A stretch of DNA of 64,000 nt from Vairimorpha necatrix (lineage: Eukaryota): contig CP142731.1 of the NCBI GenBank assembly GCA_036630325.1, positions 558,001 through 622,000 on the forward strand, in the 5' to 3' direction. How positions within the stretch are numbered: the stretch's first letter is position 1; each line of letters begins with the position of its first letter. The position numbers were made by a program, and so were the translations under genes. This document shows positions 16,424-61,500 of the stretch, in pieces. Under the pieces are notes generated by a model. It saw nothing but the letters and a program-made list of their open reading frames with translations, was not told the origin of the DNA and made no database searches.

Positions 16424-16442
16424 GTATTTGATCAATACAATA

Positions 16443-30886: not shown

Positions 30887-31076
30887 GGAAATAGAGATGT
30901 TATGTGGTCATAATACCACATTCTGCCTTCCTACAACTTTAAATCCCGCACATGTCTAAATTGCTGTTCTCCTTCAAGCTTCGCCCATTGCCCTTTATTG
31001 CCTATATAAGCAATTCGTTTCCTTCCCGAATACTTTTTCTCTAACTTCTTAGCACCGTAATTTTTATAATAGACCT

Positions 31077-32896: not shown

Positions 32897-32960
32897 AACC
32901 TTATCATTCAATTTAAATTTACTGGCCTTTGGTGACATAATTTTTCTGTTAATACATAAT

Positions 32961-34710
32961 GGTTGGTGGAAAAGTCCGCCACCGTATTTAAAAATTTGAA
33001 AAAAATAGCCCTTAAAATTGAATTTCGAAACGAACAAACAGCATCAGGAAGAAACACCATAAACTAAAACTACAAATTTTATAATAATATAACACAAAAT
33101 AAATCATTTAAATACAAAATATTTAACATTTATACTCTTATTATACAATTCTATGATATTAGAAGACAATATGTTTTTTTTTTTCAAAAATTTATTTTTC
33201 GTCGAATGTTAAGGAACCCTCTTAATATGGAAAATGAAAGAAGATTACAAGAACAGAAAGAAAGACCTGTCGAAATAAAAGGCATAAAAAATAAACATAT
33301 GAAAATATACAAAGGACATAAATACTATAAGAAATACACCGGGGCTTCAATTATAAGATGGTCTTTCTATTTAAAAAATTGTAAAGGAAGTATACGCATG
33401 AATACTACAACAAATGAAATATGTGATTATCAAGAACATAATCATGAAGAATTAAGTAATTCACAAATTAAAATACTATTTGTAAATGAAGATATAAAAA
33501 GAGATAGCCTTACGAGTAGAAAAACTAAAAACGAAATTGTATGTGCAACAACATCAATGCTCGATGATTCAGAAAGACAGTTACTTCCAAGTATACGTAA
33601 CATAAAGAGAATAATTAGAAATATACAAGATTTAGCTCAAAATTTTAGCTATTCTAATAATTATGATATTCCAAATGAGCTACTAATGACACGTTCTGGG
33701 ATCAAATTTATACAGTATGATAATTATTTTAGTGCGAAAGAAAGAATAATAGCATGCTGGTCTGATAAAAATGTGAACAACGCCAAGAATAAGAAGGTCT
33801 TTGCAGTTGATGGGACATTTTGCTCGTCACCTCTAGCCTTTTTTCAACTTTTCGTAGTATTTTTTGTAGATGAATATACTTACATTCCTTTTGCTTATTT
33901 TCTGCTGCCAAATAACAAATATGAATCATATGTGGAAGCTTTTAAAATGCTATTTAATTTAGCAAATGTTAAAAAAATGGAAAATATGATAATATATGGT
34001 GAGTTGAGTATACATAAGGCACTGAATAGTGTATATCCAGACACCAGAATAAGATTTTGTGTATTTCATTATTCACAGGCGGTTTTCAAAAAATTTAAAT
34101 CATTGGGATTTTTTAAATTATACAAGGATGATACAATTTTTAGATTTTATATCAAATGTTTGCTTTGTTCAATATTCATTACTGAAGAAAACAAATATAT
34201 TACGTTTAAATATTTAGTTAGATTAATATGTCGAGATTATAATGGACATGCAATTAAAGAATTCCTCAACTATTATATAACAAATTGGTTAAATAAAGAC
34301 CTTTTCCGTTATAACGATATGAAAGAAAGAATAGAACATGATATACCATTTACAAATAATGGAGCGGAAGGTTTCAATTCTTCATTGAAAAGAGAATTGA
34401 AATCACCACATCCAAGTCTAACTGAGCTTTTAATGTGTTTAAGAAATCGTGATTTTCTAAATGAAATATACAAACATAATAATAAAAGCCAGAAAAACAA
34501 TATCATAACAAAGACAAGAAATTCAAAAATATTACTTAAAATAGAAGATTTAAAAGACAATGACTGTTTGGAAGTTCTTAAAGAAATAACATTCTTATAT
34601 AACTTTAAAGATGATATTTTACAATAAATTTATTCATTTCGAAATTCAATTTTAAGGGCTATTTTTTTTTCAAATTTTCTTAAATACGGTGGCGGACTTT
34701 TCCCCATACG
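32961..34710 (+). mobile_element. Mutator-like (MULE) DNA transposon
   Basis: ~65-bp TIR GGAAAAGTCCGCCACCGTATTTA...GAATTTCGAAA; flanked by a 79-bp direct duplication. Confidence 0.9.
33206..34627 (+). CDS. MULE transposase, 473 aa; second catalytic Asp appears replaced (IIYGE)
   Basis: FLYWCH-like N-terminus, VDGTF, CVFH, TNNGAEGFN. Confidence 0.85.
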   Translation: MLRNPLNMENERRLQEQKERPVEIKGIKNKHMKIYKGHKYYKKYTGASIIRWSFYLKNCKGSIRMNTTTNEICDYQEHNHEELSNSQIKILFVNEDIKRDSLTSRKTKNEIVCATTSMLDDSERQLLPSIRNIKRIIRNIQDLAQNFSYSNNYDIPNELLMTRSGIKFIQYDNYFSAKERIIACWSDKNVNNAKNKKVFAVDGTFCSSPLAFFQLFVVFFVDEYTYIPFAYFLLPNNKYESYVEAFKMLFNLANVKKMENMIIYGELSIHKALNSVYPDTRIRFCVFHYSQAVFKKFKSLGFFKLYKDDTIFRFYIKCLLCSIFITEENKYITFKYLVRLICRDYNGHAIKEFLNYYITNWLNKDLFRYNDMKERIEHDIPFTNNGAEGFNSSLKRELKSPHPSLTELLMCLRNRDFLNEIYKHNNKSQKNNIITKTRNSKILLKIEDLKDNDCLEVLKEITFLYNFKDDILQ

Positions 34711-37700: not shown

Positions 37701-40700
37701 TCTTCAATTCGTCTCTTTGATTCTTCTTTGCTCAAATCGAATATATAGCTGTAAATATCTAGTTAGCTAACACTTCAGAAAAATACTCTTTAATAGAAGC
37801 AAAGTCTTTCTGTTTAATTGATTCTAATAAGCTTAGATAAAATTTTCCATTCTCTTTAGGAAATTTAATATTTAGCAATTCCTTTTTAATTTTAATAAAT
37901 GAATTCTCTGTTAATCCATTCTTATAGTATTCATCCTTAATAATACTATACACTATTAATCCCATTTGGGAATCATTCCAACCATTACACTCTCCGAGGT
38001 GTTCAAATCTTTTGAACCACTGCAAACTAATATCTTTTTGTATATCATTTATGATTAATATTTTTTCTTTCATAGTTATATCTGTACCTTGTATTTTCTT
38101 TTCAAAGGTAATGTATTTATCAGTAGAAAATTCCTCCTGATGGTTTACTTTAATCGTTGCAGTTGATATCAACTTGGCGTGCTGCACAGGGATGCGGCTT
38201 GTTCTAAAGTAATACTCTAAAGAACTATATGTCTGCCCGTCTGTCTCTGGCAGGCTTTTATAATGTTTGTTGTAATTATTTTTATTTGATACCTTTTCCT
38301 TTGGGTTCATCTCCTTTTTTTATGGGTTTAAAATCAAATATTTTAAAAATAAGAAGGAGGGAAAATAATGAAAAATTGTAATTTCATCCTATAGGAAATA
38401 GAGATGTTATGTGGTCATAATACCACACTTCCATAACTCATAAAATTTCACGTCTAATAATACGGAGACCTTTTACAACAAAAGAATGATTATATAAGTA
38501 TTTAAGCCAAGAAAAAAAAATAATGATGATTAAGATAATTTTTATTTTAAAATAAGCTAAACGAAGTTTTCGTGTAGATTAGTATTATTATGTTTGTTCG
38601 AATAAATATCAATTAGAAATAAACTCTATTAATAATGATTTTCATAAAAAATAAATAATGCATATTTCACGCTTGTAAACGACATGAGTTCTTTACAAAG
38701 ACCCATTATTATAAGATTCAGATTCAAACTTTTAAGTCATTACTTTAATAGTAATATATTAGAAAAAAAAAAAGAAGTGTTAAAGAAAAGTGTTTTTTTG
38801 TGTATTGAGAAAATATGTGACGTTATTACTGGGGACTTTGCCCAGTTTTTCATACAATTCTAAATAATTTTTTATTAGAGGCTCTTCTAGCCTGTATTGG
38901 TCTTTGTTAAGTTTTGACCTGTCATAGCTTTGCTTATGACTTCTCTTCTCGTAGCTCATGCCCTTCTTTTCAAAAATAAATATTTATAAAAAATAAAATT
39001 CTAGAAAATTCATTTTTTCTAGAAAAAGTTTTTATCAGAAAAAATGATTTTCTTGACATGTGGCTAATACCACAGTCTGCCTCTCCTAGAACTTTAGATT
39101 TTTGATGTGGCTCCAACCTATATTCCCCTTTAACCTGTCCCAATATCCTTTCTTACTAACCGCTTCGATTCTTCGTAATTTTGTAAATTTATATCCAAGC
39201 TTATTAGGATTAAATAAGCGTTCTCGGCAGAAATCTCCCACTTTAGCTAACTGTAAAGTGGTTGCACTATAAGGATATTTATATGATATTGGTCTTCGCA
39301 TAGGATCGTATTCATCATATTCGTTTATAATGGAGAATGGTGATTTGCCTATATTCCCAATATAATTTCGGTTTATCGCATTTTCTGCGTTTGCAAGAGC
39401 GAGTCTAATTTCTTTACCTTTATTTATACTCAACACAAATGTAATTGTCTTTTTGATAGCTTCTGATATACCATTAGAACTAAGGGTATATGTAGGTATT
39501 AAGGTATGAATAATCTGTTGTTCAGCTAAGAATTCTCTAGTTTGCTTGCTTATGTATTGGCGCCCATTGTCCGATATTAAAGTTTTGGCTTGCCGTACGT
39601 TTCTATCCAATTTTCTAGAGCTTGAATTACTGACTCTGATTTTACTGTGTATAAAAAATATAATCGTGTAAACCTCGAATATATATCCGTAATTGTTAGA
39701 ATATATCCTACCTCTTTTCTACCAGAAGTTATGAAATTATCTAAATTAAACGGTCCATATATATCCGTACTAATCTTCTCAAATTTTTCCGTCGCTATCA
39801 TTTTACTTTTTCTATATCTTAAATAGTTATTACCTTTGAACACACCACATGTGTTACATTTCTTTGTTATATTTATTATTCTTTTAAACAGCCCACTTAT
39901 ATAATAATAATTCTTTAGGTTGTAATATAGCGTGCTACTTCCTCTATGTTCACTATACTTGTGCATAAATTCTAAAAACCTCTCTACCTTTTCTTTTTTA
40001 TAATGATCCTGTTGTTTTGATCTGTTAAAAATGATCCATTTTTTTTATAGAGACAACATTCTTTTATAATGTTTGTTATGTTGACTGCGTTTTCTCCATT
40101 TTGATGTAAAAGGGGCGCTTGATTTCTAGATAGTTGATCTGCCAAACAGTTCTCCTTTCCATTTACATGTTTGATTGTATGACAGAATTCGTTTAACAGC
40201 AACTTCCACCTGCTAATCCTTGAACTTGAGGCTTTATTTTCATAGATACAATTTTTACTGTCCGTTAATACTTCCACATGAGAACCTTGTATGATATTTA
40301 TAAATTCAAGTAACGATAGTATGATTGCTAAGAACTCCTTCTCTACGATTGTGTAATTTAATTCTGAACCTGAAAATTTCTTACTAAAGTATCTGATTAC
40401 CTTTCATTCTTGTGTAAGTACACTTCCCATTCCTATATCGCTAGCATCGCTTTCTAGCATAAACCTTTTTGAGTAGTCTGAAAAACTTAGATGATGTTTT
40501 TCTTTAATCCATATTTTAATCTTATCTATTTCATTCTGCATATTTGAATTAATTTTTATCGCTTTATTTTTATTTGACAACATGTTTGTAATGCTGCTAA
40601 TTTTTCTAGACATGTCTGGTATAAATCTTCTGTACCAATTTAATACTCCAAGTAATTTCTGCAAATCTCGCTTTGTTTTTATTTCTTTATTAAAAATCGA

Positions 40701-40916
40701 GTTTTCTAAATAACTCGTCTTAGGGAAAATCCCCTTATTGTTAACTCTATATCCTAATAGTTCTATTTCTTTCTGGAAAAATTTTGATTTGTCAAAGTTG
40801 ATTTGTATTCCTTTATCATATAATCTCTTTAACACCATATGTACGGTTTTAATATGATCAGACTTCGTCAAATTATATATGATTATGTCATCGATAAAAA
40901 CAAATACATTATCTAT

Positions 40917-43900
40917 TGTGGACGGCGGATAGTCCGGACCAATCAGATTGTCTTCTTGACATCTGAAACATGATAATTCTGAAACAACGTTTCAGAATTA
41001 AATATAAATACATCCTCGAATTTATGAGGATGGGCAATAATAAAAAGAATACTCTAAAACCTCATATTTCGGCTAACGTCAACACTGGCGACAACGCAAA
41101 CCAATCTGTTGAGAAGGACAGATTAAGTACTTTACTAGAAGCAGTGGGCTTCAGGAAGGATGGCATAAGACCATTCAGTGGTAAAGGAGGCATGGAAGTT
41201 GAGCTATGGCTGGAACAATTCTCGTATTTAGAAGGGGAATGGAAAGGCGAAAAACTTCTATCCTATATGAAACCCTATGTCGTGGGAAGAGCGAAAAAAT
41301 GGATGATAGCGATGGAAGACATCGAATATACTGACTTCATCAGTTTTAAACAAGCTCTTATTACTAAATTTGGTGTAAATAAACAAACGACAAGAAATGA
41401 AATCAAAGAGTTATACAGAATATTAATATCTGGTCCTAACGAAAGTGGCCTGGAAGATTTCATAATGGAGGTTATAACCCAGAATAGGAAAGCTAAATTA
41501 GAGTTTAATACAGTCAAAATGGAACTGATCGAGTTTTTCCCAACTGTTCTTCACGACAAAGTAAAAGAGTCGATGGACTGGAAGAGCATCATCAAAATCT
41601 TAAATGATAACGAAGATTTTATTAAAAGATTAGGTAAATATAATAAAATTACACCAGAAATAAAGTCTAAAAACTCATCTTTAATAACAAAACAGAGAAA
41701 AGATACTAAAGCAGAAATTTCATGTTTTAACTGCGGAGGGCAACATTATGCGAGTAGATGTCCGAGCAAAAACCAAAATCTGAAGAAAGAAAAAGCGGCT
41801 TATTCAAGTTCTAGAAGGGCTCAAATTATTTCTAAAGACACTAAAAAACTCAACGAAGTCAATGAAAATAAAACTGATTTAGTTTATTTAACAGTCAAAA
41901 TTTATAATAAAACTGTTAATGCCTTACTAGATACAGGAGCATCGCATTCGTTTATAGATAAAAGTCTCATACAAGAATGTAAGTTAGAAAACATGAGAAG
42001 AGAACGCATAACAACTGCCACTGGTATAGTTTCTAGTTATGGTAGCATTAATGGAGTCCTGGAGATTGAAGGAAAGAGGTACAAAATCCCCCTCCAGGTG
42101 ATGTGTCCATTAAGCGAAGATGTAATATTAGGAAGAGATTTCTTGGAAATAAACAAAGGAGCGATTGATTTCCATAACAAAAGAATTACTCTTGGGAAAA
42201 ATATATTAAAAACCGGAAATATAAAAAAAAATATGGATTGTCTGGAGTTAAGACATATATCTAAAGAGACATCACGACAGCCAAGTGTTCACAGCACATG
42301 TAACACAACGTTGGAATTAGTCAAAGACTACTTTGAAAGGCTGAAAGGACGTGAAGAAGGTCTCAGCAATACGTTGGGAATAGCCCATAAAATTGATTTA
42401 CGCCCCAACGTGACAATAGCTAATATGAGAAGTTATACTATGGACGGTAAAAAGAAGGAGTTCATAATTAACGAATGCCTAGAGTTGGCTAAAAATGGAA
42501 TCATAACAGAAAGCGTGAGTAGGTGGAATGCACCTATAGTAGTGGTTAAAAAACGCACGGGAGGACACAGGATGTGTATAGATTATCGAGAATTAAATAA
42601 TCGAACGGTAAAAGAAGTTTGCCAGCCTCCAACTATTGAGGAGTGCCTTAATTCATTGAGTGGAGCAAGATATTTCACACAATTAGATCTAGAAAAGGGG
42701 TATCATCAAGTGCCCATGGATCCAGAGTCACAAGAGTTGACAGCCTTTATGTCACCAGTAGGTAAGTTTCAATATAGAATGATGCCTTTCGGCTTAACTA
42801 ATGCCCCGGCAACATTCCAGAGACTAATGTATGGAGTTTTCAGAAATTTAACAAATTCCAAAGTCGTAGTTTATATGGACGACATTACCATATATAGTAA
42901 AACGCATGAAGAACACCACAGAGATGTAAGAGAGGTCCTTCGAGTCTTGTTAGCAAACGGACTTAAAATAAGTACTGAGAAAAGCGTTTTCTGCACAAAG
43001 AGGGTGGATTTATTAGGTCATTCAGTAATGGATGGAAAGGTATTCCCAGATGAAAAGAGACTAGGTCCTTTTAAAGATAAGCTAAAGATAGAAACTATTA
43101 AACAGTTACACTCATTTGTTGGCGGAATAGGCTACTTCAGAAACTATTTTAAGAATTTTTCTAGTAAAACATTTATATTAAACGAAATAATCAATAGGAA
43201 AAGAGAATTTTCAAAAATTGAAGTCGAGAAAACTGTAAATGACTTACGACTAGAATTAATAAATTCGGCGTTTTTAGAACTCCCAAATATGGAAGAGATG
43301 TTCATAATAGAAGCAGATGCATCAGATTATTGTATAGGCGGTGTTCTCAAACAGAAAAAGAATCAGAAGGATGTGGTCATCAGATTCTGTAGCAGAAATC
43401 TAATGCCTGCTGAGAGGAACTATCCTACACTTGAAAAGGAAACTCTTGCAATAATTTATGCGGTGAAGACTTTTAAAAACTATTTACATAAAAAATTTGT
43501 CATAAGAACAGATCACAAATCTCTTGTATGGCTTTATAAAGTCAAGAATCCACAAGGAAGGATTGCTAGATGGTTGATGTTCCTGGCAGACATGGAATTT
43601 GTGATTGAATATAAGAAAGGGAAAGATAATGTAGTAGCAGACTGCCTTTCAAGAGTCCAATTAAAATCAATAACCAAGGAAGATGGCGATGGGGCGTCTA
43701 CGAAATTAATCTTAGAAGCTCATTCCTTAACTGGACATAGTTGTGCCAATAACACGTACAATTTTTTGAAGATACATCATGCGGGATCAGGAATATCTCG
43801 AGATAGAGTGAAAGATATATTGAGAACATGTGGAACATGTTTAAATTTAAAAGGAATAGACCGTTCAAACAATATCCAACAAATGTAGAAGGAACATTCA

Positions 43901-44938
43901 TGGAAATTGGGATCGACTGCATCGGTCCACTGCCAAAGTCGAAATCAGGACACAAATTCATTGTTCTCGCAACCGACTACTTTACTAAATGGGTTGAGGG
44001 TAAAGTTCTAAAAAAGAAATCGGCAGAAGAGATAGCAAGATTTCTAGTGGAAGACGTATTCTCAAGACATGGGACGGTCAAAACGATCAGGAGTGATCAG
44101 GGATTAGAGTTCACAAATAAACTAGTGAACTCAGTAGCATCGTTATGGGGAAGTAGATTTAAACATTCATCTCCATACCACCCACAAGCTAATGGTCTTG
44201 CAGAGAGAACAAACAAGACCATGATAGAAAAAATATCAAAAGCCATGGTAGATCATGAACAGAACTGGGATAGAGTATTCCCGTATGTGTTAATGCAATA
44301 TAGGATTGGTATAGTGGAACGCTTTAATGCGTCACCCTTTATGTTACTATACGGCAGAGAGCCTTTAGTTCCAAGCAATTTAATTGAGATACCATCAGAC
44401 TTTGATTTATATTTTGTTGATCCAATTGAATATGTAAGACAGAAAAGAGAGAAAATAAATATTATTAAAGAAAGAATAATGGAAGTAGAAGATAAGAAAA
44501 AGGCTAAGTCTAACGAACGAAACTTATATAAAGCAGACCCCAATGACTTAGACATAGGAGATACAGTTCTTTTAAAGAAACACGCACTATTGAAGAGAAA
44601 ATTCGAATCACCATACGAAGATGAAGAGTTCGAAATTATCACTAAGAAAGGCAAAGGTGCTTATCAAATAAGAAGTTGTAATGGAGGGAAAACATTTGAT
44701 ATTAATCGAAAAGATTTAGTTGCTGTAACCGAAACTGAAAAGACGATATCTTATTTGATGAAGGGGAGAGTGTGGACGGCGGATAGTCCGGACCAATCAG
44801 ATTGTCTTCTTGACATCTGAAACATGATAATTCTGAAACAACGTTTCAGAATTAAATATAAATACATCCTCGAATTTATGAGGATGGGCAATAATAAAAA
44901 GAATACTCTAAAACCTCATATTTCGGCTAACGTCAACA
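40917..44938 (+). mobile_element. Ty3/Gypsy element, recent, tRNA-type PBS TGGCGACAAC (probably tRNA-Ser)
   Basis: Identical 168-bp LTRs 40917-41084 and 44771-44938; 6-bp TSD ATCTAT; PPT GAAGGGGAGAG. Confidence 0.96.
40970..44820 (+). CDS. Gag-Pol with one frameshift near 43860 in integrase
   Basis: CCHC knuckle, LDTGA, YMDD, ADAS; integrase core in ORF 43828-44820. Confidence 0.88.
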
Positions 44939-46204
44939 ATCTATATTACCTAAAATGTTTTATATATACCTTTGAAATAGTTTGGGACCGGGCTTGATTC
45001 CAAATGAAATTCTGTTATACTGCCACTGCTGTCCTAATAGGAAAAACGATGTAATCTCTTTGCTTTTTTCATCAATTCTTATTTGATTAAACCCATTACT
45101 AAGGTCTAATTGTGAGAAATATTCATTTCCCCATGTTAAGCAAGCAATTATCGATATTTGGTAGTATCCAAGGGTCATCTTCTATAACTTTATTAACTTC
45201 TCTGTAATCTACCACCAGCCTAAGATCTTTATTCTTCTTTTCTATGAAGAATGCAGGACTAACTGTATTTGAAAAACTTTTCTCTATAATATCTTCTTTT
45301 ACAAGTCTTTTTATTTCTTCCTTTGCCTTATTTATATATTGAAAAGGAACAGTGTATGCCTTTCTTTTAATTACAGGGATGTTTTCTTTTATATTAATAG
45401 ATGCAAATTCTCCTTCCAAGTATTTAAAACTTTTGTTATTTTGTTTGTAAAGACCAACATATATTTAACTTTTCATCTTCGCTAACAATGCATGACTTAT
45501 TTTCTAAATATTAATCTAGTCGTTCTCCAGCTTCTTCCTCCATTCCTTGAATTTCTAATAATATCTTATCGATTTCTACTACTCCTGCGTGTGAGTCGCT
45601 TTCGCGTTAACATTGTATAAGAAATCGTTGCCCAGGATGAAGTTAACAGGAGCCTGACCTAATACGTAAAAGCTAGTGTTAAAGGCCCTATCCTTTAAGA
45701 ATAATTCTACATTAACCATTTATCGCAATCTAAGGTTGTAGTATTTCCAAAAATTGTTTTTAGTCCTTTGCCTTATACGACTTGTAATTTCAGTCAGATT
45801 CAATTCTTCTTTATTAATGTAATTATTTTTTGATCCGCTGTCTACTAGAATCTCACCCTTTTGGTTATTTATAGTACATTCCACTATAACATCTTCAATT
45901 ATTTTTTTTCTTAATTTAATAATCATATTTTTGTCAGGTTTATGATTACTTTCTTGTCTTTGATTATTTTTATTTTTTTGCAAGTAGCAATGTTTCGTAT
46001 CGTAAGATAGTTACTCTTATGAAAACTACACCACTTCTTCATCAAGTTACCAGCTATTGAGTTATAGTTCCGAATCATTTGATTTGGCTTTTGACTCATG
46101 TTTATTATTAATTCGTTTTCAACTTGAATTAGATATTCAATATTTCATTTATGGATCTATTAATCATATTCAAACGCGTTAATTCCAAATGCGTGAAATT
46201 GCTC

Positions 46205-49200
46205 TGTCGTAGCCCATCAAGTCCAGCCAATCATCTTTCGACAAATGGACGTATTTGATTGGCTACTTAAACTATTTAAATTTATTTCCAAAAGAGGGGA
46301 TGGAAAATTCGAATAAAGCATTTGACATGGCGACAACCTCGAATAATGCAAACTATTTCTCCGGGGAGCCAGGTGAAGATGTAAACACCTGAATACGAGA
46401 TATAATGATGTTGGGAGAAGTCTCTGAGTGGACAGAACAACAAATGAAAAAGCGCTTATTTTTAAAATGAAAGGGAATGCTTTATCCTGGGCATCTCAAG
46501 TCCTAGCAGGAAAGATGAACTATATAAGCCTAGCAGACTTTATAAAAATGTTGAAAGCCAGATTTGGAACGAATAAAGATAGTGACATAACATTGAGCCG
46601 ATTTCTCTCTCTTCCCATACCAGAAACAAGGGAAGACTTTTCTAAAATGTTAACACAAGCCACGATCATCTCTGAAAGAAAACAAATTTACTTGAATGCA
46701 TTATTTCAAATGATTATTAACAAATCCCCACCCGAAATAAAATTATTATTATTCCAAGCTTCTAAATCGGCCGAGACTTGGGGAGTCTTTGTCCAAATGG
46801 CGGAAGAAATAGCATGGATTCCATATCCAGATAAGATGTTGTCTATAGTAGAAGAATACGGACGTAAACCATCATTTAATTACAATTATGGCAGAGGGCC
46901 AATTAACTACAAAAAACATGGTAGAGAGACACCATATAACAGAAAACATGACAAGGAATCATTTTCAGAGAGAGACAGTCAGGAAATTCTCACTTAAACA
47001 AGAAACATTGCATCGTGCATGGAGAAGGATTGCACGCAACAAGAGAATGCAAAAAATTATCTAAATTTATTAAAGAAGAAAAGAGGAAGTCATCTGGTAA
47101 CATCAACATAGTCGAAGAAGAAGAAAGGAAACATGGCCACGAAATAAACGACGATGTTTTTTGTATATTATGTAGAGTTATAAATAGCGATAATCCTTTT
47201 GTCGTAGAAGGTTATGTCTTTAATAACAAGGTTAGTGTTTTATTGGATACTGGAGCAGATGTGTCACTCATCGGACAATCAGATTTACCAATTGATCTGC
47301 ATAAACATATTAATACATACTCAGGATTTGTTAAAGGAGCAGGTAATAATACATTAAAATTTATCGGACAGTTAAAGAACGTTACTATAAAATTAAAAAA
47401 CAAAACTATAACATTTTTATCACTAATTATGCAAGATACAAGATACATAATTCTAGGATCTGAAGTAATAAAAAGAAATTAAGCTTAGTCACTGAGATAT
47501 TTACAGAAATATCACCAGATATCAACAAAAAAGTTAGATACTGCAACGATCTAAATAAAACAAAAATCGAGGAACAATATTGTGATGTTAGTTTAAGCAT
47601 CACAATTATAAGGGCTATAAAATATAGACCCATCAAATATTTCATTCATGACATGTCGAATCGTGAATAAATTAACAAACAAAAGAATATTGTAAAAACA
47701 TGCTTACAAATGGAAAAGCACTAATCTTTATCCAAATTGTTGAACATAATTTTAAATTAAAAATAAAATATAAAAGGAAGTTTGTTTTGGAAGGGGACGA
47801 ATGATTGAAGAGAAAGATACAATTCAAGGCAGAGAAAAAGCCATTAATAAAAACAGTTATAAAAATAAACAAATATTCACTAAAAACATTTTAGAAAGCT
47901 ATTACAGAAATAGCACAGTTCCTTTTATACAGGACAAATTTGAATTCAAAGATAAAACTGTATTCAATAATGAAACTAAAAAAAAATCCAAGGAAGGATT
48001 AAAATTTAAATATACGATCGAGGAGATCGATTTAGAAGTTGAAAAAAATTTAAGTATTATAGCAGACATTGAGGAGTATGATGCTGCCGAATTAGAGCAC
48101 TGGTTTGAAGATTTCAACCAGATAAGCAGACATAAAAAATGGGACTTTAAAAAACAAAGAATAGCCTTAGGAGAGCTAGTTAGAGACCCAAAATTACAAC
48201 AAATATTTTCCCTATCAGAAATGGAAAAAATTAAAATATTTATAGAAAAAAAGATGATTATAAGGGTGAGTTCTGAAATGCTGCAACTGAAACTAATGGA
48301 ATGCAAGCAGACAAAGTATAGATACATTAAAGAATACTTAATAGAGTTAAAAGAGTTGATTGACCAGTACACTAGAATTGAAGGTCTTACTAGAAAAGAA
48401 TATGAAAGAAAATTAAGAGAGAGAGTTTCTCCTTGGGTTTAGGATTTGCAACTAGATTAAAAATTATGGAATTAAAAATGGAAAAAATTGAGGACATCGT
48501 TTTATATCTGGAATCAGTGGAGCAAAGTTTAATACTGGAGGTAAAAGACGTGAAATAAAATATAAATGCGTCAACGGAGATCGAACGAAATGCAGAAATG
48601 AAAACACCAACTACATGAATAGCAAATGGTGTAGCTTTCATAAGAACAATACTTACAGTTTAAAGGATTGCTTCGTATTAAAGAATAATACTTCTGAACA
48701 TTCAAAGGAAAGATCTAAACATAACAGAAATGATAAAAATAATCAAGACAGAGTATTTATGATGAAGGAAGTTGAACCGAGCAGACTAGATTTAGAAATA
48801 GAAGGTGAAATATTAGAATGTAAAAAGAACGTTCTGCTCGACACAGGAGCCTGCCGCAATTTCATAAACGCAGAACTGGCAGAAAAACAGAATCTATTAA
48901 TTAGAGAAGAGAAACCAATTCAAATGGTTACGGCCACTAATCAGAGCGTCGAATTGAAATCAGTAGTAGACGTAGCTTTGAAATTAAAAGGAATAAAAAG
49001 GGAATTTAATGTCATGCTGTACGTACTAGATAAGTGTATGGTCGACGTTATTTTAGGTAATACATTCATTTTTTCAAACGAAATGATTCTAAATTTCAAA
49101 GAAAATACAATTAAGATTGACAATGAGAAAATCAATGTGTTAGAAGAAAATGAGAAACTCAAAGAAGAGAATGAGTTAGATAGCATATTTTATGATAAGC

Positions 49201-52200
49201 TGGGAATGGTAAAGGAAGTTAACAAAGAAAACAGCGAATTAAATAATTTAATATATTTTTATAAAAAAATTAATGAAGAATTTAGGGTAACTAAAATAAA
49301 TCCCGTTAAAATAAAAACAACCAGTAATCTAGATGTACCTTTAAGGAGTCTTTCATATAATGTCCCACATAAGTATGTTGAAACAGCTAGGATAGAAATT
49401 AAAAGACTTCCGAATGAAGACATCATAGTAGAAGTAGATGCAGATGTTTATAGTCCAGGATTCTTTATAGAAAAGAAAATAAGGTTTTGAGAATGGTCAT
49501 CGATTATAGAAGATTGAACGAGATCATAATGGATGAACAATTTGATATACCAAAAATATTTGAGAATTTGCAACTCATAGGCAACATGGCGTATTATTCA
49601 AAGATTGACTTAAAAAATGGGTTCAATCAAATCCCTTTAGATAGAGATGGCCAGAAAATTACAGCCTTTAAGATCATGAATAAAACATATATGGATAAAC
49701 GAATTCCATTCAGAATAAGATCAGGACCTAAGATTTTCCAAAGGGTCATAACCGAAATGCTTGAAGGAATAAGAAATTGTTTTGTGTATATAGATGATAT
49801 AATTATATACGGAAAGGACAAAGAAGAACACGACGAGATAGTAGTGGAAGTGCTACGAAGTTTAAAGAAATATGAAGTGAAAATAAATTTTGAAAAAAAC
49901 AAGTTTTTATAATACAGAAATTAAGATATTAGGATTTTTTATTAATAAAGAAGGAATATTTGCGGATCCAAAATATTTAGAAAATAAAGTTATGGATAAT
50001 ACACCAAAAAATAAAAGACAACTCCAGAAGATAATAGGGGTGTTTAACTGGTATAGAAGATTCATAAAAAACATGAGTACCAAGTTACACAAAGTAACGA
50101 ATCTATTAAAAGAAGAAAAGTTTATATGGAATGAAGAACATCAAAACATCATAAAAAATCTTAAAGAAGAGATCAATAATAATACACAGTTAGTGTACCC
50201 AAATTTTCGGGAAAAATTCATTTTAGAATGCGATGCTTCTGACGTAGGCATAGGCGCAGTGCTATATCAAAAAAGCGGTGTAATTGGATACTTTAGCAAA
50301 AAATTGAACAGTACAGAACAAAATTATTCGATAGTAGAAAAAGAGCTTTATGCAATAGTAAAAGCATTAACATTTTTTAGAGAGATAACTCAAGGATATT
50401 ACGTTGAGATTTATACGGATAATGAAAATTGTGTCTACGAAACAAATGTTTCACAACTAGAATGGAACGATGGAAATTCTATTGAACGACTATAATTTTA
50501 CATTAAAGAAAATAAAGGAAATCGAAAATAATTTTGTCGATAATTTATCGGCAATTAAAGGTAAGGAAACGCGGAGAGTACTATACAAGAGCGAAGTTAA
50601 AAAGTATCTAGAAGACAACATGGATGAAGTAGGAAAGAAGAAAGTAAAAGATGGTAAAAAATAAGAAGAGTTTCTAAAGTTTATACACGAAGAAAGTGAA
50701 CACGCGGGAGTAGTAAAATGCTACTACAACATAAAAAATTATGTAAAAATAAAAAATCTAGGAATGAAATTAAGGGGAATCATAAGAAATTGTTTGAACT
50801 GCAAAGAATATAAAAATAATAACAAAACTAGTAGTGAAATTGTCCCAATAGTAGCAAAAGAGCCATTTGAAAGAGTTAGTTTCGATATCTACGAGCCATT
50901 TGATTTAGAAAATTATAAATGCACTACACAAAAGACAAAAGGATACTTTATAACCATGACAGATATCAAAACAAGAATTACACATATCAAGTTCACTACA
51001 AAGATAACGGCCGGGAATGTAATCAAAACTTATCAGAGATGGATAGAAAAATATAAAACCCCCAAAGTAATCATCACAGACAATGGTAAACAATATAGGA
51101 ATAAACGATTAATAAAATATCTAGATCAACAAGGAATAAAAGCTAGATTTGTCCCGGCATATACGCCGAGCTCAAACGGAATTTCAGAAAGAATAAATCA
51201 AGTAATATCTGAAACTTTGCGAATTGTTAAGGATTAGCGATTGAAACAATCAAAAGAAAAATCCTGCATAGATTAAATGAAAACTATAATACCAGCGTAG
51301 GTTGTTCGCCGATGTCAACGATTACAAAACAAAATTATTTCAATTTTGAAGAAAAATGCGAGGAATTCAAAATCAGAGAAGTTAAGAACCAAGGAATTAA
51401 AATTAATGAGAGAATTAATGTAGGGAACGAGGTTTATAAAAAAAAATTTAGTAGTAACAAGTTAGACAAAAGATTTATTGGACCCTATAAAATAATCGAA
51501 ATCGGCAATAAAGGAAGATGGATCAAGCTAGATAACAATGAATGGGTACATTCAAGAAATTTAAAGCTTTAGGAGAGGGCAGAATGTGATGTTAGTTCAA
51601 GCATCACAATTATAAGGGCTATTAAATATAGACCCATTCAAATATTTCATTCATGACATGTCGAATCGTGATTAAATTAACAAACAAAAGAATATTGTAA
51701 AAACATGCTTACAAATGGAAAAGCACTAATCTTTATCCAAATTGTTGAACATAATTTATAATTAAAAATAAAATATAAAAGGAAGTTTGTTTTGGAAGGG
51801 GACGAATGATTGAAGAGAAGAACGTAGCTCAGCAGAGAAAATGCCAATAATAAAACAACTTATAAAAATAAAACAACATTTACTTATAACATTCTAGAAA
51901 GCTATTACAAGAATAGCAAAGTTCCTATTATACAGGACAAATATAAAGATTTATTTAAGACCGAAATAGGAGAATTTAATTTATGTGCAGCAGGAAAGCA
52001 TAGCATACAAGTTAATAGCGGTAAAATAATCTGCCAAGGAAATGGTAGAATACCAATTATGCAAGAGGAAACAATTGAAAAGGAAATCCAAAAATTACTA
52101 GAGCTGGGCATAATTAGAGATAGTAAAAGCCCTCGGTGCAGTAGGATAGTCATGGTTCCGAAACCAGATAAAACGTGAAAAATGTATATAGACCATAGAG

Positions 52201-53781
52201 GTTTGAACTATATTACAATAAAAGATTTCTATATGTCGCCCAGAAACGACGAAATTTTAGATAGTTGTTCCAAAGCTTCATTCTTTTCAATCCTAGACGC
52301 CACAAGTGGATTTCAACAACTCCCCATGGAGGAAAAAGACAAAGAGAAAACAGCTTTCTCATTTAAAGGTTGCAGATATAAGTACAAAAGAATGCCGTTT
52401 GGGCTGTGCAATGCTCCGTCAACGTTTCAACGTGCGATGGATAATATTTTCAGATGCGAAAATAGAAAATTTATCGTACATATCTAGATGACATAACGAT
52501 TTATTCTAAAACAAAAGACGAGCATGATAAACATCTACAAATAGCATTAAGTAAAATTAGGGCTGCCGCATTATCATTAAACCTAAAAAAATGTAGATTT
52601 TATAAAAATGAAATTAAAATACTCAGAAATATCATATGAATTGGATACATAAAAGTTGATCCAGAACGAATCAGTCAAATAAAGTCCTATCCAATACCTA
52701 ATACTATAAAAGAGCTTAGAGGCTTTCTGAGGACTATTAATTGTTGCAGAGATTTTATAAAAAATATAGCAACCCTCACTGGACCACTATATGATTTTCT
52801 TTAGGGAGAAAAACAAAGCTCAAATAAAAAGATATATCTTAACAGTGAGCAAATAGAAGGTTTTAACAATACAAAAATGGAAATGGGGAAAGTACTATCA
52901 GGACTCGGCCCAATGTTCGGAAGGAATTTATATTCAGTACGGATGCGTCAGATTCAGGAATAGGAGCCTTTCTATTATAGGATAACGGACAAGGTGAAGA
53001 AAAAATGATTGCGGCTTAAAATAAAAGACTAGACAAATGTCAGAAAACTACTCAGTAACAGATAAAGAATTACTTGGATATATAAAAGGAATAGGTCACT
53101 TTAGACATTATCTACTAGGGAAAAATTTACCCTTAGAACAGACCATAAAGCACTCGTCTACCTAATGCAAACAAAAGACCTGTCAAGCCGACAGTTAAGA
53201 TGGTCATTAAAACTTTCCGATTATGATTTTAAAATAGAACATGTAAAAGGAGATCATAATATAGCGGATGGATTCAGCAGATTTTTTATAACAAGAACAA
53301 ATAAACAACTTAAATACACAAGAACTTAGTGTAGAAGATAAGAAACTTGGAACAATTCTTAAAAGATATTCTAAACAACACTTGCTAGAGAAAAGAAATA
53401 AAAATTTTATTAAATAAAAAAAAGACATAATTAAGGGTAAAAGAGATATCAAGAAAAAGCTAGAAGTCGGGAAACCAGTAATGATCTATAGAAGCATGCC
53501 CGGAAAAGACATATTAAGCTCAAAATAGGTTGTTGGGTATAAAATATCGGAAATCTTATCTGAAGATGCTTATCTAGTGAAGCCAATAAATAACAAAGGA
53601 GAATTTAGAGTTAACAAAAGTCACGTAAAAAGAGATACGTCAAAAACTAAGTGAGGGGGTGTCGTAGCCCATCAAGTCCAGCCAATCATCTTTCGACAAA
53701 TGGACGTATTTGATTGGCGCCTTAAACTAATTAAAACCATTTCCAAAAGAGGGATGGAAAATTCGAATAAAGCAATTGACA
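46205..53781 (+). mobile_element. Ty3/Gypsy element (degenerate; integrase core apparently deleted), tRNA-type PBS
   Basis: ~122-bp LTRs 46205-46327 and 53660-53781; TSD TGCTC; PBS TGGCGACAAC; LDTGA, RT/RH remnants 51945-53300. Confidence 0.9.
47581..51939 (+). mobile_element. Ty3/Gypsy element (frameshifted), palindrome-PBS type
   Basis: ~355-bp LTRs 47581-47936 and 51585-51939; TSD AATAT; PPT GGAGAGGGCAGAA; gag-pol fragments 47801-51572. Confidence 0.94.
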
Positions 53782-54603
53782 TGCTCAATCCCTTTATAAA
53801 TAATGTCGCGCGCCCGGCGCGCGACCGGAAGATTTCGTGAAGAAATTCTACATAAACATATTGTATGTTCAATCTAACTTCAGATTGGAGAATTAAAAGT
53901 GTATTATTAACAAGGTTATATACAAAAAGATCTTATTTTTGTAGTAACACTTTACTAACGCCCACTTACATCATGAACATAAACAAAATACAAGATTTTT
54001 TAAATTAAAGGTAGATTTTTGTCAAATTGGGTTAAGCTTTTTTTAATTTTATAAGCGCATTAAGATTATAACAAAGAGCTCTAACGGAGAACTCATTAAG
54101 CTATTTATTTATATGCATATACATAAAAAAAATTATAAATTTAAGGGTACATTGTATTCCATTATTTCTTTTCATAATGCTTAATTAGCTCTATTTTTAT
54201 GGTTTGATTTTTATAGATCAGCTTAGAAGATTCTTAGAATTTAATTAAACTTCAATTTATAAGAATTTTTATAAACAATAAAAATAAATTAAAAGGGACA
54301 TTTATATAGAAACTAGAGTAATTTTTTATTACATTAAAAACTCTTAACTCAAGTATTGATTATCTTGGAAAAATAAAATAAAAATAAAAATATGATGCTG
54401 TGCTCAAATATAAAGTTTTAGAAAAAATACCTAAATTTGAGTTCACAAAAATTCATTTTAGTTAATTAGGTACACATAGCTGTGTAAAGATTACATTTTA
54501 GACGCCCGTTCAATAAATAGTCTACGAAGGTCATTTGAATATTATATTTCTAGTACGTTGGTATTTGCATTTTTACACTTTATTCTTTAAAATATCGCAC
54601 ATC

Positions 54604-54606
<3 letters not shown>

Positions 54607-54638
<32 letters not shown>
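54607..54638. repeat. (AT)n microsatellite
   Basis: About 16 AT units. Confidence 0.9.
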
Positions 54639-54643
<5 letters not shown>

Positions 54644-56109
54644 AATAATTATATTAAAAAACGGGCTTAGTGACATCATTTAAACAGATAACTTTCTTAA
54701 TTCAAAAACATACAATTTTCATGAATAAAACATTAAATGCAGTTTTCAATATATAAATTATATAAAAAGATCGTAAACAACTAAAATTTATAAAAACAAA
54801 TAGTAAAATTTATCTAAAGGCTCATTTATTTAATTTTTTAACCAGATTCATTGATATAATTTCCTCCTTACCTTCGTATTTTAACCTTAATCGGATATTC
54901 GATAAAATTTCTATTACTTCCCGTGGTTCACTATAAAAAGAACTCAATTTTAGTTTTTTTGTTTTCGTATTAGTGTCGAAATCTTTTTTTACAACCACTA
55001 AATCTCCAATAGAAAAATCATTGATGAAATTATGAACACATTTTCTGTCCATTCGAGCCAAATATTTTTCATTACTCACTGCATCACTTCCTGGAATCGT
55101 ATTTACAGTTGTTTCATCCTCATCAGTGCAATCATCATCATTCTCCCTTAGACATGTATTGTATCCAAGGCTTCCGTACCATAACTTATAGGGAGACTTC
55201 TTTGTAGCAGAATGTACAGCGGTATTATAGTCATAAACAACTTTATTAATGACCGCTAGCCAGTTCTTATTGTTAAAACCTTTTTTCGCAAAGATGTTTT
55301 TGCAGGTAGCGAGTAAGGGTTTGATTAAACCTCTCGACTTGTCCTTGACTCTGGGGATGACGAGGTCTGCCATGAATAAGCTTTATTTTATTTTGTTTAC
55401 GAAATTCAACTAATGTTTCATTTTTAAACTCTTTGCCGTTGTCGCATTGAAGTATAGCAGTAAAGCCTAACGTTTGAAATTTGTATTCTAACCGTGATAC
55501 GACTTCAGCGGCGGTTTTAGTTTTCAAAGCAGAGATAAAAGCATATTTAGAAAATACATCTATTGCTGTGAGTATTAAACTAAAACCATCATTTTCATCA
55601 CTATAAGTCCTCATATCAACAAGATCAATAATAAATCTTTCGCCGGGTCTTTTAGCGACGATGTGCTTGAACTTTTCTTTTGTTTTAAGAGGTTGTGCTG
55701 TCATGCATAAATTGCATTCACTGCAAACATCCCTTACAATACACCTAGGTATACTGAAGTATTGTTCCTCACACTTATCATAGAGACGGTTCGCGCCATA
55801 ATGATGCTGCCGATGAAGTCCTTGGACCTCTATTTTCATAGCTTGGACCATAGTCTTACAAGTACTCTTTTGTGCCAGCCCCCCACATCCTTCAAGAAAA
55901 GAATGTTATCCACAAGAATAAAACTTTTGGATTTCTTCTTTAGACTATATTTTAAATTTTTGTCACATTCTAGGCTAACCACGTTCCCTTTGAGTATTTG
56001 GACAAGCCGATCATACTCAACTTGGTCTTTTACTTCTTTCATAGAGAGTAAAAAAAAATTTTTTTTAAAATGATGAATCTTTACTATAATTTTTTGCAAA
56101 ATATTTTAT

Positions 56110-56185
56110 TCAACCAGCTTGGCACAGTGGTTGTTATGGTCATCCGTCACTTTGAAGGTCGTATGTTCGAATCCCAACATGTTGA
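56110..56185 (+). promoter_or_regulatory. tRNA-like sequence with Pol III A and B boxes (not a credible tRNA gene)
   Basis: A box TGGCACAGTGG 56120-56130, B box GTTCGAATCC 56165-56174, TCAAC/GTTGA ends; other stems poor. Confidence 0.55.
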
Positions 56186-57091
56186 AAATTTATTTAGGGG
56201 TCATAAAAAAGATAGTTGAATAATCATAAACAGTTAACATACAGAAATACATAGCTTGTATAATTACAAATTTCAAATGTTAAAAATTCTGTTAGGTTTA
56301 AAAAATTAGGAAAAAATCTGGTCGCGCACTGGGCGCGGTCGCTCGTTGGGCGCGCGACAAATAATTCTTCGTTTTTATTTGGGTCTCCTTCTTAGTGAGA
56401 CTATTGTAATAGCTATATGCTAAAAGTCTTTCTCTTATAATCTCTTCATACTGTTTAATTGTATTATAATTGGCTTGATTAATAGCATCTAAATCCCTGA
56501 TGCTTTGTCTCTTTCGCTCGGGCGGATAAATTGTTATCTAATACCCTTTTTCTAAGAACTAAATACGAGTTACAGGTATAGCTTCTTTTCTTTCATCGTA
56601 AATACATGATAAGTATATTATGGCCATTTGTTCATCTGTTCATTTGTTTGATATTCCTAATTCTTCAAACTTATCAAGTTGTTTAATTGTGAGCTGAGTT
56701 TTGATATCGTATATTTTTAATATTTTTTCTTTACACTTTATAGTGTTATCTATTATGTTCTTTTCGAATTCAATATACCCATCTTCTTTAATGTTTCCTG
56801 GGTTACTGTTAACGTTTAACCTCGTTGAATTCAACTTGACGTTATCATTGGGGACTTTACCCAGTTTAAACTACATTTCTAAATAATTGTTTATTAAAGG
56901 CTCTTTTGGCCTGTATTGGTCTTTGTTTGTTTGCACCTGTCATTTCTTTGCTGATGACTTTTCTTTCTGTAGCACATGCCCTTCTTTTGAAAAATAAATA
57001 TTTATAAAAAATAAAATTCTAAAAAATTCATTTTTTTAGAAAAAGTTTTTATCAAAAAAAATGATTTTCTTGACATGTGAATAATACCACA

Positions 57092-57739: not shown

Positions 57740-58505
57740 ATGCTCACTAACGAAGAAATAAATAAAACATACGAAGAAATTATTTATAAACTTCTTCAAG
57801 TAAAATGTTTCAAATGCAAGAAAGAAGTTAGGAAGAGACAGCAAAGGAGTTACAATGTCAGATGCATTGGTAAAAAGTGCAAAAAAAAGAGGAACCTTTT
57901 TGCAAAAACCCATTTGGATCATATACTTATGTTAAAGATCCTGAACCTCTGGCTCACAAAAATCCCACCTCTACTAATCGCCAAGTTGTTATATATTCCC
58001 CCATGTGTTGTATCGAGGTGCCTTCAACAGTTTTGTTTGGACGAGGCTTACCATAAATACATGGAAAGTGCAAGAGAGACACTGGGCGGTAAGGATACAA
58101 TCGTAGAAGTGGACGAAAGCAAATTTGGAAAACGTAAATACAACTTTGGACACAAAGTAGACGGCGTGGGTGGGGGTTTGGGATGGTCGAACGGACTAAA
58201 GAAAGAAAAATTTTATTAATTCCGGTACCTAATAGAACTAAAAATATCCTATTAAATCTTATTGCCACATATATTAATAATCAATCCACTGTTTATTCTG
58301 ATATGTGGAAAGGATATTCAAAAATGAACCAGATAATGGCAAGCCACATAACTGTTAACCATAGCAAATGGTTTAAAGATCCCATTACAGGTATGCACAC
58401 TAACACAATAGAAGGGAATTGGTCAGCTATAAAACGCCAAACGCCGATAAGATGTAGAACAACTTGTTTAATATATCCCTATTTGTTAAGATTTATGTTG
58501 CTTAG
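57740..58505 (+). pseudogene. Merlin (ISXO2-like) transposase, frameshifted and cut by an LTR
   Basis: VEVDESKFGKRKYN, SDMWKGY, HTNTIEGNW. Confidence 0.9.
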
Positions 58506-61500
58506 TGTCAAACATATCCAAGTTAAGGGGTATTTAATAATAAAAATATAAAGTAAACAATGACATGAAAATGTCACAACATCCCCCCCTCTATAAGAAA
58601 TAATCGTCTTCGTCGATTTTTCTAAGCTGCGTAGCGTGTCTTTTACTTATTTCCCATTACTATTGATTTCATATGTATCGTTAGTCAAAATACCTATAAC
58701 TTCTCTGTTTCTACAAACTTTGGTTGTCCTTTGTATTTGTGTATATGGTCTTGTATAATGACTAAATCCCTAGGTTCTAACTTTTTATATTCAGGTTTCT
58801 TGAATAAACTCTCGTATCTATTTATTCGGTTTTCAAAATGTTTTCTTTTTACTTCTGAGAGGTTTTCTAGATCTAATGCTTCTATTGGGGACATCCCCGT
58901 TGCTCTAGACTTATACAATTATAAGCCCCAATCATCTTATCGACTCTTTTAGACAGTCTGATGTTCTTATCCTGCTTATTAATTCCTTCGCCCACAGTTC
59001 TATTAAATCTCTCTATTTTACCGTTTGAACAATGATGGTAGAACGAGATAATCCGTTGTCTTATTTTCTTCTCCAATAACAAACTTTGTATCTTTTCACT
59101 TATATTTTCTTTTGCGCCGTCTGATATCAGTGTGTGTATATTCATCTTTTTGTGTACAATTTCCAGAAACATCAATATGTTATCACTTTTTTTGTTTTGA
59201 ATACTTTTGCAAATGCGAATCTTGAGAAATAGTCTATAGCTGTTGTTGTATTATTTAAAAATTTATATATTCGCCCCTTAATTTTATCATGAATAAAGAA
59301 CTTAAAAATAAAATGGTGGAGAATAACAAATTTGTGCCCATGACAAGGGAAATAACGGTGGGAAATGCCGCTCTAGAGCTAAAAAGACTGGAAAATTTGT
59401 CTTTTTTTTGAAAGCATGAGCGAAGAGGAAAAGATAGAATTCATTATTAGCAGAGCATGCCATGAAATCATTGAATGGTTTTGCAGTGTAACGTCAAGGA
59501 AAACTGCAATGAACTGGATTCGTTTTAAAGAAGAGTTGGAGAGTTTTTGCAGCCCAAGTAAGTTGGAGATAGGCGACGTGTTTCGTTTAAAGCAGGAACA
59601 TAATCAAACAATTTGTGATTACATAAAATTGGTGGAGGAATCAGCAAAGTCCCACAAATTAAAAAATGAAGAAAAGATAAAAATAATTTTTGCTGGACTG
59701 AAAGAGGATGTTCCAGATGTGAAAAGACTTATGATTAGGAGTAAAGTTTTAGATGAGAATTTAATTAATGATATTTATTTGTTAGAAGAGATTAACCAGG
59801 CTGAAAAAATAAAAAAGGAAGAGAAGAAAAAGGAAAAAAAAGGAACAAGAAAAAAGAGAAACTTAAATCTAAAAAAGAAAGAATCAATAAATTGGAAGGT
59901 ATATTGTCGCAGCTACAAAGTTTAAAGGTTCAGGAACCAAAACAGTTCTCTTGTTACAACTGTGGAAGGTCAGGCCATACTTCTAAATTCTGTAGGGCCC
60001 CGCGAGACAATAACGGATCATACAAAAGAATCAATGAAGTAGTAGGAGACGCCGAGAACAAAGTACAGGACTTAATTAATAAAAATAATTCAGTTTATAT
60101 CAATGGAATATTATTTGAGGCTACACTGGACACCAGGTCCCATTATAATTTCATATCAGATGCTGTTAGGAAAGTATCGAAAGTTAAAACAAAGAGTAAC
60201 CATCAAAAAATGACCTTTTATACTTGTTTAGATGAGCCTTTTTGTATTAAAGAACATGTTTTTCTGGAAATTGAATACAAAGGAAAAAGATTAAGACAGA
60301 AATTCTATATTTTACCAAAAGTCAGAGCAGAGAAGATTCTTGTTGGAAGGGAAACAATCAAAATGTTAATGGAAGGTGAGAAAACAGTGAATCAGGCAGA
60401 AATTAAAACAGCCGAAGGTGCTAAAGTCGTTGAGAGAGTTTTTGATTTGCCCATGAAAATTGAATCAGGAATTGATGAGGCGGTAACTGAGTTGCTACAG
60501 AAAGGCTACATTTCAGAATCTAAGTCCACGTGGTTAAACAATATAAGACCTGTAATTAAACCGAATGGAAGCATCAGAGTCACAACCAACCTCGTAGCAG
60601 TAAATAAATTAGTAGAACAAGGCCGATACTCCTTACCTAATATAAATACTATCTTAGTTAATTTAATAGATATGAAATATTTCAGTAAGATTGATTTAAA
60701 GGATGGTTTCTTTCAATCCCGTTGGCCAAAGAAGACCGACATAAAACAGCTTTTAGGGTCCGACATAGATTGTACGAGTGGAATGTGATGCCTATGGGCT
60801 TTAGAAATGCCCCAGCGATTTTTCAAAGGCATATGGATAGAGTTTTGACTGAAGAAATAGGTAAATCATGTTTTGTTTACATAGATGACATATTAATTTT
60901 TAGTAAAAGCGAAGAAGAGCATGAGGCTGTATTTAGAAATATTGTTGACATTTTGAACAGGAATAATTTGGAGATAAATACTGAAAAAACAATTTATAAA
61001 CAAGAAAAAGTAGAATTTTTGGGCCATATAATCACTCATAATAAGGTATATCCAAAGAACTCAGTTACACAAGGGATTGATGATATGAAGATGCCCCAAG
61101 ATCGAAAACAATTACAAGAATTTTTGGGGTTCATTAATTATTATAGGAAATTTGTTAAAGGATGTGCAATTCTTGGAGCACCTTTGTATGATTTATTACA
61201 GGAAAAGAAAAAATATATATGGGATGAGGCAGCAATGAATGCATTTGAAGCATTAAAGGAGGAACTTAAGAAGAAAATTGAATTAAACCAGACGGATTTT
61301 AATAAGCCTTTCCAATTAGAAACAGACGCTTCAAATCATGGTATAAGAGCGATTTTATCTCAAACGAATGAAAAGGAAAGATACCCAATAGAATTTGCTT
61401 CTAGAAGATTAAAAGAACACGAGAAAAAGTACAGTATTTCAGAAAAAGAATTTCTAGCAATCCTATGGGGACTTGAACATTTTAAATATTTTGTGTATGG

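Follow-up and report, generated by a model that had tools for sequence, protein, structure and literature searches.

In the Ty1 retrotransposon of yeast the gag start codon lies inside the 5′ long terminal repeat (LTR), and Tf1 uses no transfer RNA (tRNA) primer; the LTRs of primate endogenous retroviruses reportedly include mosaics produced by gene conversion or ectopic recombination. In the canonical scheme of LTR synthesis, as outlined in a recent review, minus-strand strong-stop DNA supplies the R-U5 segment to both LTRs, and plus-strand strong-stop DNA is copied from the same minus strand (PMC6894440). Strong-stop DNA that is made on, or transferred to, a partner RNA is described as giving a new mosaic LTR type that is present twice, identically (PMC6894440, PMC5668417). 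For plants, Jedlicka et al. (2020) report that 25% of LTR pairs contain predicted converted regions and that, of 4126 nested elements, 1042 are more diverged than their hosts (PMC7251063). Here we describe an LTR retrotransposon, E5, at positions 47581–51939 of a 64,000-nucleotide stretch of the Vairimorpha necatrix genome (assembly GCA_036630325.1, contig CP142731.1, positions 558,001 to 622,000 of the forward strand; hereafter the window). The two LTRs of E5 are nearly identical over the promoter part and strongly diverged over the presumed transcribed part, which encodes the N terminus of Gag. We give about even chances to the reading that the transcribed block of one of these LTRs came from a diverged member of the same family, by gene conversion or by recombination with complementary DNA (cDNA).

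E5 is a genuine Ty3/gypsy-type LTR retrotransposon copy, on the plus strand, inserted into the pol region of an older element, E6. Its LTRs (47581–47936 and 51585–51939; 356 and 355 nt) have TG...CA ends and are flanked on both sides by the 5-bp target-site duplication (TSD) AATAT that the preliminary description had reported as intact. The left copy (47576–47580) forms the last codon-and-two-thirds of the host pol frame, the right copy occupies 51940–51944, and the host frame is continuous once E5 and one TSD copy are removed. Moreover, among the contigs listed, one contig each in sequencing runs X1 and X2 joins 47575 directly to 51940 in a paralogue of the host, with five letters fitting either side. 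The TSD, the continuous host frame and these empty-site contigs together establish that the insertion and both LTRs are genuine. Within the element, a gag-like open reading frame (ORF) of 213 codons (47801–48442, from the ORF list) starts inside the 5′ LTR and matched no Pfam family. It is followed by pol in six frame segments (48492–51572; Pfam, tblastn and ORF table), with Pfam matches for protease (Asp_protease_2/RVP_2), reverse transcriptase (RVT_1), RNase H (RT_RNaseH_2) and integrase (Integrase_H2C2, rve) in Ty3/gypsy order, and a purine-rich polypurine tract (51572–51584) stands directly before the 3′ LTR. The interior as a whole falls into seven frame segments, with about five frame shifts and one or two in-frame stops. 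Between 48442 and 51237, about five of the roughly six or seven frame breaks are frame shifts, not stops, and the X1 and X2 contigs show single-letter length changes relative to the window at several places; both could reflect residual assembly indel errors or other copies of the family.

The 5′ LTR opens with an inverted repeat (TGTGATG..CATCACA) and carries a TATA-like box at about 47771–47779 and the gag ATG at 47801. The preliminary description had counted about 6 differences in the first part of the LTR pair and about 24 in the rest, and our alignment agrees: the best change point falls at column 235, with 6 differences in 235 columns before it and 24 in 121 after it (permutation p ≤ 0.0005; Fisher 9e-8). 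Splitting the alignment at the gag ATG instead gives 6/220 versus 24/136 (p = 1.6e-6). The first difference of the block, at 47815/51820, lies 14 nt after the A of the ATG. Each LTR thus divides into a conserved, U3-like part (47581–47814 and 51585–51819; 97.4% identical) and a divergent block, presumed R-U5 (47815–47936 and 51820–51939). Divergence in the transcribed block (17.6% when split at the ATG) is about six times that of the promoter part (2.7% in U3), with 8.4% for the whole LTR, and U3 contains long perfectly identical runs. In the 5′ LTR the block encodes Gag residues 5–45 in an open frame that runs on into the interior; in the 3′ LTR it is homologous to the Gag N terminus by alignment and translation, with a 2-nt length difference that disrupts the frame from the ATG at 51806. 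The differences mix transitions, transversions and that one 2-nt length change, and so carry no single editing signature. Block-wise divergence, a feature of LTR mosaics that arise by conversion or ectopic recombination, is therefore present in a copy with a verified TSD.

The divergence of the block does not mark E5 as old: it exceeds what the age of this copy allows. We simulated substitutions on the intact 1273-codon frame of another element in the window, E1, which gave about 3 stops (0–6) at 1.35% per lineage and 18–20 stops (10–28) at 9–10% per lineage. With its one or two stops, the E5 interior has decayed to an extent that fits the 2.7% U3 figure. The nesting order leads to the same result. 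E6 (46205–53781, plus strand), the host of E5, has LTRs at 46205–46327 and 53660–53781, the TSD TGCTC and a tRNA-type primer-binding site (PBS; TGGCGAC...) after its 5′ LTR, and itself sits within a still older minus-strand element, E3 (38818–57091). LTR divergence rises in that order, from 2.7% in E5 U3 to 6.5% (8/123) in E6 and 11.7% (30/257) in E3, whereas the E5 block, at 17.6%, exceeds its own host (p = 0.008). A nested copy is necessarily younger than its host, so it is the U3 figure, not the block figure, that fits the nesting. An alternative that would reverse this logic is that E5 is an old copy with about 18% LTR divergence, the U3 of which was later homogenised by conversion between its own LTRs. 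The long identical runs in U3 would suit such an event, and intra-element conversion tracts of 100–1000 bp are described in plants (PMC7251063). Decay of 9% per lineage would nevertheless have left far more interior stops than are seen, the host of the supposedly old copy has an LTR divergence of just 6.5%, and the host flanks join into an open frame; we consider this alternative very unlikely.

Five other LTR pairs are present in the window (E1, E2, E3, E4 and E6), and they show what an LTR pair in this sequence normally looks like. In E1 (5954–10143), which carries a 12-nt palindrome at the PBS position, the LTRs (5954/9905) are identical over 239 nt, a 5-bp duplication is present and a single uninterrupted 1273-codon gag-pol frame (6059–9880) starts inside the LTR; the element looks recently active. 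This is the copy already known to have identical LTRs. A second identical pair, in the tRNA-type element E4 (40917/44771; 168 nt), was not in the preliminary description, nor was the E6 pair. Because E1 and E4, one per PBS type, are identical over the full length, the whole LTR, coding part included, is normally duplicated faithfully. Among the diverged pairs, that of E3 (38818/56837, minus strand) has 6 differences in 117 positions before the ATG and 24 in 140 after it (p = 0.003), close to the earlier counts, with the break 2 nt after the ATG; leaving the change point free, on a slightly wider stretch, gave no significant break (p = 0.35), and inspection of the flanks of this pair revealed no target duplication. 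The E2 pair (29419/38171, given earlier as 29423/38175) had been described as having the same polarity. Its lack of a TSD stands, but only 66 aligned bases, not 92, are identical, and there is no contrast at the ATG (5/91 versus 8/137, p = 1.0); the differences in this pair are concentrated at the TATA-like box and close to the end, and the 3′ copy lacks the first ~26 nt. In the 123-nt E6 pair (46205/53660), all 8 differences fall in the second half (0/59 versus 8/64, p = 0.006), 6 of them at the TATA-like box.

In a loose sense, then, all four diverged pairs of the window carry more divergence in the second LTR half, and the stricter pattern of a conserved U3 beside a diverged gag-coding part is found in two of them, E5 and E3, with a TSD verified in E5 only. 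As a crude control, 80 metagenome loci, whose elements proved too distant to serve as close relatives (≤34% identity), yielded 16 candidate repeat rows and, once pairs that were 100% identical or shorter than 125 nt were left out, 8 unrelated gypsy LTR pairs. In this small and heterogeneous set, none of the 8 showed a half-versus-half contrast at p < 0.05. The generality proposed in the preliminary description is weaker than stated there: it holds for E5 and E3, which split at the ATG, and fails for E2, one of the three diverged palindrome-type pairs. The occurrence of the pattern in tRNA-primed elements, which that description had named as evidence against its model, is found in part: tRNA-type E6 shows it for the second half of the LTR, with the differences gathered at the TATA-like box. 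The two peptides quoted there for the E5 blocks were read correctly, as translation confirms, whereas the statement that many of the differences are protein-conservative is not borne out, the proportions of nonsynonymous and synonymous differences (pN/pS) being 0.164/0.248 (0.66) in the E5 pair and 0.154/0.162 (0.95) in the E3 pair.

A bias towards the second LTR half in every diverged pair would also be expected if mutation were locally more frequent where the LTR is transcribed close to its promoter, as in transcription-associated mutagenesis. Deletions of 2 nt are among the changes seen in that process, and the E5 block has one. A mutation rate raised past the LTR promoters should, however, reach the adjoining DNA, and no such effect is seen: the gag ORF that continues past the 5′ block has 213 open codons, and the bridging X1 paralogue contig differs from the host flank that follows the 3′ block no more than from the left flank (18/261 and 13/276 positions, respectively; p = 0.36). 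In addition, two of the four diverged pairs have differences at the TATA-like box, upstream of any transcript. These results argue against hypermutation, which we regard as highly improbable. Taken together, the interior decay, the nesting order and the lack of spill-over into the flanks make the divergent block better read as a different variant of the family than as the product of even decay, and to this extent the preliminary description was right.

We propose that the LTRs of E5 would share descent from one insertion only in U3 and that one of them would carry a diverged variant of the same family over the stretch that starts 14 nt past the LTR-internal gag ATG and reaches the end of the LTR. 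The variant most likely arrived through homologous recombination with a second member of the family, without change to the flanks. This could have been ectopic gene conversion, most simply of the 5′ LTR block and adjoining gag, which would offer homology on both sides; alternatively, a cDNA could have recombined with the copy in place or with a solo LTR already resident. The family variants themselves would be mosaics of U3 and R-U5, or would share a homogenised U3, so that an exchange becomes visible only from the transcript start. Recombination during reverse transcription would generate variants with a shared U3 and different R-U5, and the transcribed part would encode a poorly constrained Gag N terminus. 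Further copies of the family do exist, as contigs that are 90–99% like the E5 interior are present in both X1 and X2. The E3 pair, which has no TSD and need not consist of sisters, shows the same partition at the ATG; the Gag N terminus upstream of a conserved ILE.Y-type motif is unalignable in length and sequence among six relatives; and in a loose end in X2 (a single contig) the conserved LTR end is attached to a block sequence of yet another, third version. The partition in E3, the unalignable N terminus and the third version fit a modular family loosely, and a donor is identified by none of them. As for direction, the 5′ block is in an open frame with gag and the 3′ block has the frame-breaking length change, and at three sites that can be compared with a V. 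necatrix peptide it is the 3′ block that seems closer to the ancestral state. What we infer from these observations is that an exchange took place, which way it went and that the family is modular.

Several points weigh against this proposal. Searches of the window with either block or with U3 (blastn, blastn-short) returned only the pair itself, and an exact 26-nt LTR pattern had 0 matches in metagenome contigs and 0 in prokaryote genome contigs. Random conversion tracts would not place the break at the ATG in two families, as is seen here (14 nt and 2 nt behind it); the coincidence would require the further assumption that the variants share U3. A transfer into the 3′ LTR would imply a tract that stops no more than 11 nt from the end of that LTR, an awkward requirement for gene conversion. 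With pN/pS near 1, the differences do not positively indicate that the versions separated in replicating lineages. It is also unusual for LTR families to combine a 220-nt U3 that has hardly changed with a block that is 18% diverged, and the pattern is accompanied by a verified TSD in one case only.

A stack of nested repeats such as this window also invites the explanation that the mosaic is an artefact, the block of one LTR having been overwritten during assembly or polishing by reads of a commoner paralogous variant, or the repeat having been mis-joined. Most of the interior breaks of E5 are single frame shifts and the X1 and X2 contigs differ by single-letter lengths, much like residual long-read indel errors, and the depth of X2 contigs over the LTR and the start of gag, far above that over pol, means that foreign reads would have been plentiful. 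Such a chimera is unlikely nonetheless. Both blocks are covered by X1 and X2 contigs (depth table), the same partition recurs in a second family (E3), and the block keeps a coherent homologous frame except for the one 2-nt change.

In a further alternative, the LTRs were non-identical at birth because a partner RNA of another subfamily was present in a heterodimer. In the form first put forward, the R/U5 of the 3′ LTR would have been made through strong-stop DNA on the partner RNA. This mechanism does not produce the observed pair, because the canonical scheme as published still yields two identical LTRs, an intermolecular first transfer making them mosaic and identical (PMC6894440, PMC5668417). 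A workable version would have both packaged RNAs give minus-strand DNA, with the plus-strand strong-stop DNA of one transferred to the other, or would have that DNA switch to another minus strong-stop DNA, present in free form; in both cases a foreign R-U5 would end up in the 5′ LTR. In two families the break lies just behind the TATA-like box and the ATG, where R would be expected to start, the divergent block has the extent expected for strong-stop DNA, and two molecules might pair through the 12-nt palindrome that four families have at the PBS position. Exchange of U3 and R/U5 between family members is, moreover, described as frequent in ONSEN (PMC5668417). Set against this, the workable version depends on a particle that contains two complete minus strands. 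Such particles are rare in retroviruses. The two young elements of the window, E1 and E4, have perfectly identical LTRs, the palindrome-type E2 pair shows no contrast, the tRNA-PBS host E6 also has its differences in the second LTR half, and the transcription start is a prediction from the sequence. We judge non-identity at birth to be improbable. Distinctly unlikely, too, is a broader proposal for this clade, in which a palindrome takes the place of the tRNA primer site, namely that heterodimer particles occasionally build two LTRs from different strong-stop DNAs, or that abundant strong-stop DNA converts resident LTRs. Were it true, copies would be born with, or quickly gain, a foreign R-U5 in one LTR, and the break at the transcript start in two families would be its footprint.

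The palindromes themselves are perfect over 12 nt and occupy the PBS position in four LTR families, at 47939–47950 in E5, 6193–6204 in E1, 38161–38172 (minus strand) in E2 and 56825–56836 (minus strand) in E3, following the 5′ LTRs at 47581, 5954, 38427 (minus) and 57091 (minus). In E5 the palindrome stands in place of a TGG... site, and the 64-kb window contains no tRNA gene. The palindromes have the form (T/G)TTGA-NN-TCAA(A/C), and their outer and central positions change in a compensating way between families. Among the Gag relatives from the search of representative proteins whose listed or fetched sequence was read across this region, all have tripeptides (LNS, LIS or LSS, or IDIN in another frame) of the sort that such a palindrome would encode, to judge from the protein sequences. 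For Tf1-type pairing between leader and PBS, with a transcription start that is only presumed, the best duplexes in the four palindrome-type elements were no better than those of shuffled sequences (fraction 0.29–0.98), and the fold of the leader RNA was unremarkable (z = −1.45). After the pairing result we also set aside a match of 6–7 nt, seen in two families, that links the block with one half of the palindrome.

The proteins closest to E5 Gag are two V. necatrix polyproteins, P0001 and P0002, with 52% identity over their N-terminal part. The search found 0 matches among 182 candidates near the query length and 2 among 1018 of longer length, both from V. necatrix; P0002 used as a query found only itself among 8000 scored, and a search of representative proteins gave 15 matches, which were used for motifs. 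Summed X2 contig depth over 47628–48611 and 51400–51727, which take in U3, the start of gag and the sequence ahead of the 3′ LTR, is 100–900 times that over pol (thousands to 45,000 versus about 50), and much lower in the two divergent blocks than in U3; the high depth reflects either a very abundant LTR-gag derivative or parts common to many copies.

The window as a whole has ~32% G+C and is a stack of nested transposable elements. Six LTR families (47581, 5954, 40917, 46205, 38427 (minus) and 57091 (minus)) have a short inverted repeat at the LTR start, the first arm of which is the LTR terminus (TGTGG..CCACA type); it directly follows the purine tract and is present in both palindrome-type and tRNA-type elements. 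The host of E1 is an element resembling a long interspersed nuclear element (2825–6055), with RVT_1 and an endonuclease/exonuclease/phosphatase domain, and more copies of it lie at 10143–16445 and 26084–27639. ORFs of DNA transposons are interspersed among the retroelements: one of 519 codons with a MULE transposase domain (33068–34624, plus strand) and two with an IS1595/ISXO2-like DDE domain (29823–30335, minus strand; 58138–58548, plus strand). The ORFs at 33068–34624 and 29823–30335 are located between the integrase and the 3′ LTR of the minus-strand element 29419–38427. A pair of inverted repeats (16450–16619 and 17876–18023), ~90% alike and ~1.3 kb apart, possibly marks the ends of a small DNA transposon.

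For the dating of E5, the U3 figure alone agrees with both the nesting and the decay of the interior. The bias in LTR-based dating anticipated in the preliminary description is thus real, at 8.4% for the whole LTR versus 2.7% for U3, and age spectra of transposable elements in such genomes should therefore follow screening for blocks of this kind. Beyond dating, a break at the start of the transcribed part in two families raises the questions of whether U3 and R-U5 are separate modules and whether copies may be born with unequal LTRs.

Among described systems, V. necatrix itself offers the nearest in sequence. The Ty3/gypsy polyproteins P0001 and P0002 resemble E5 in Gag and have the same domain order. 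The P0001 polyprotein model extends into its 3′ LTR, and its last peptide repeats its first, so the LTR there also encodes the Gag N terminus; both polyproteins belong to a different family from E5 and were compared as proteins only. Literature on microsporidian LTR structure yielded nothing relevant by title or abstract. Like Ty1, E5 has its gag ATG in the LTR and, like Tf1, a non-tRNA sequence at the PBS position, although no significant complementarity between leader and PBS was found in the palindrome-type elements. The recombinant LTRs of ONSEN (Sanchez et al. 2017, PMC5668417; reviewed in PMC6894440) are described as having U3 and R/U5 as separate modules with a break at the U3/R border, as in E5, but in ONSEN-type products both LTRs are the same mosaic, whereas the two LTRs of E5 differ in the R/U5-like block. 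Another parallel is provided by the plant LTR mosaics (PMC7251063), which, in the features reported for them, share with E5 the blocks of unequal divergence, a nested element that seems older than its host and the resulting bias in dating. E5 departs from them in that the edge of its block falls where the transcribed, gag-coding portion of the LTR begins, as it does also in a second family, and in that the searches of the window and of the contig collections turned up no donor. E5 is thus one example of the known class of LTR mosaics, to which it adds one unexplained regularity, the break at the ATG.

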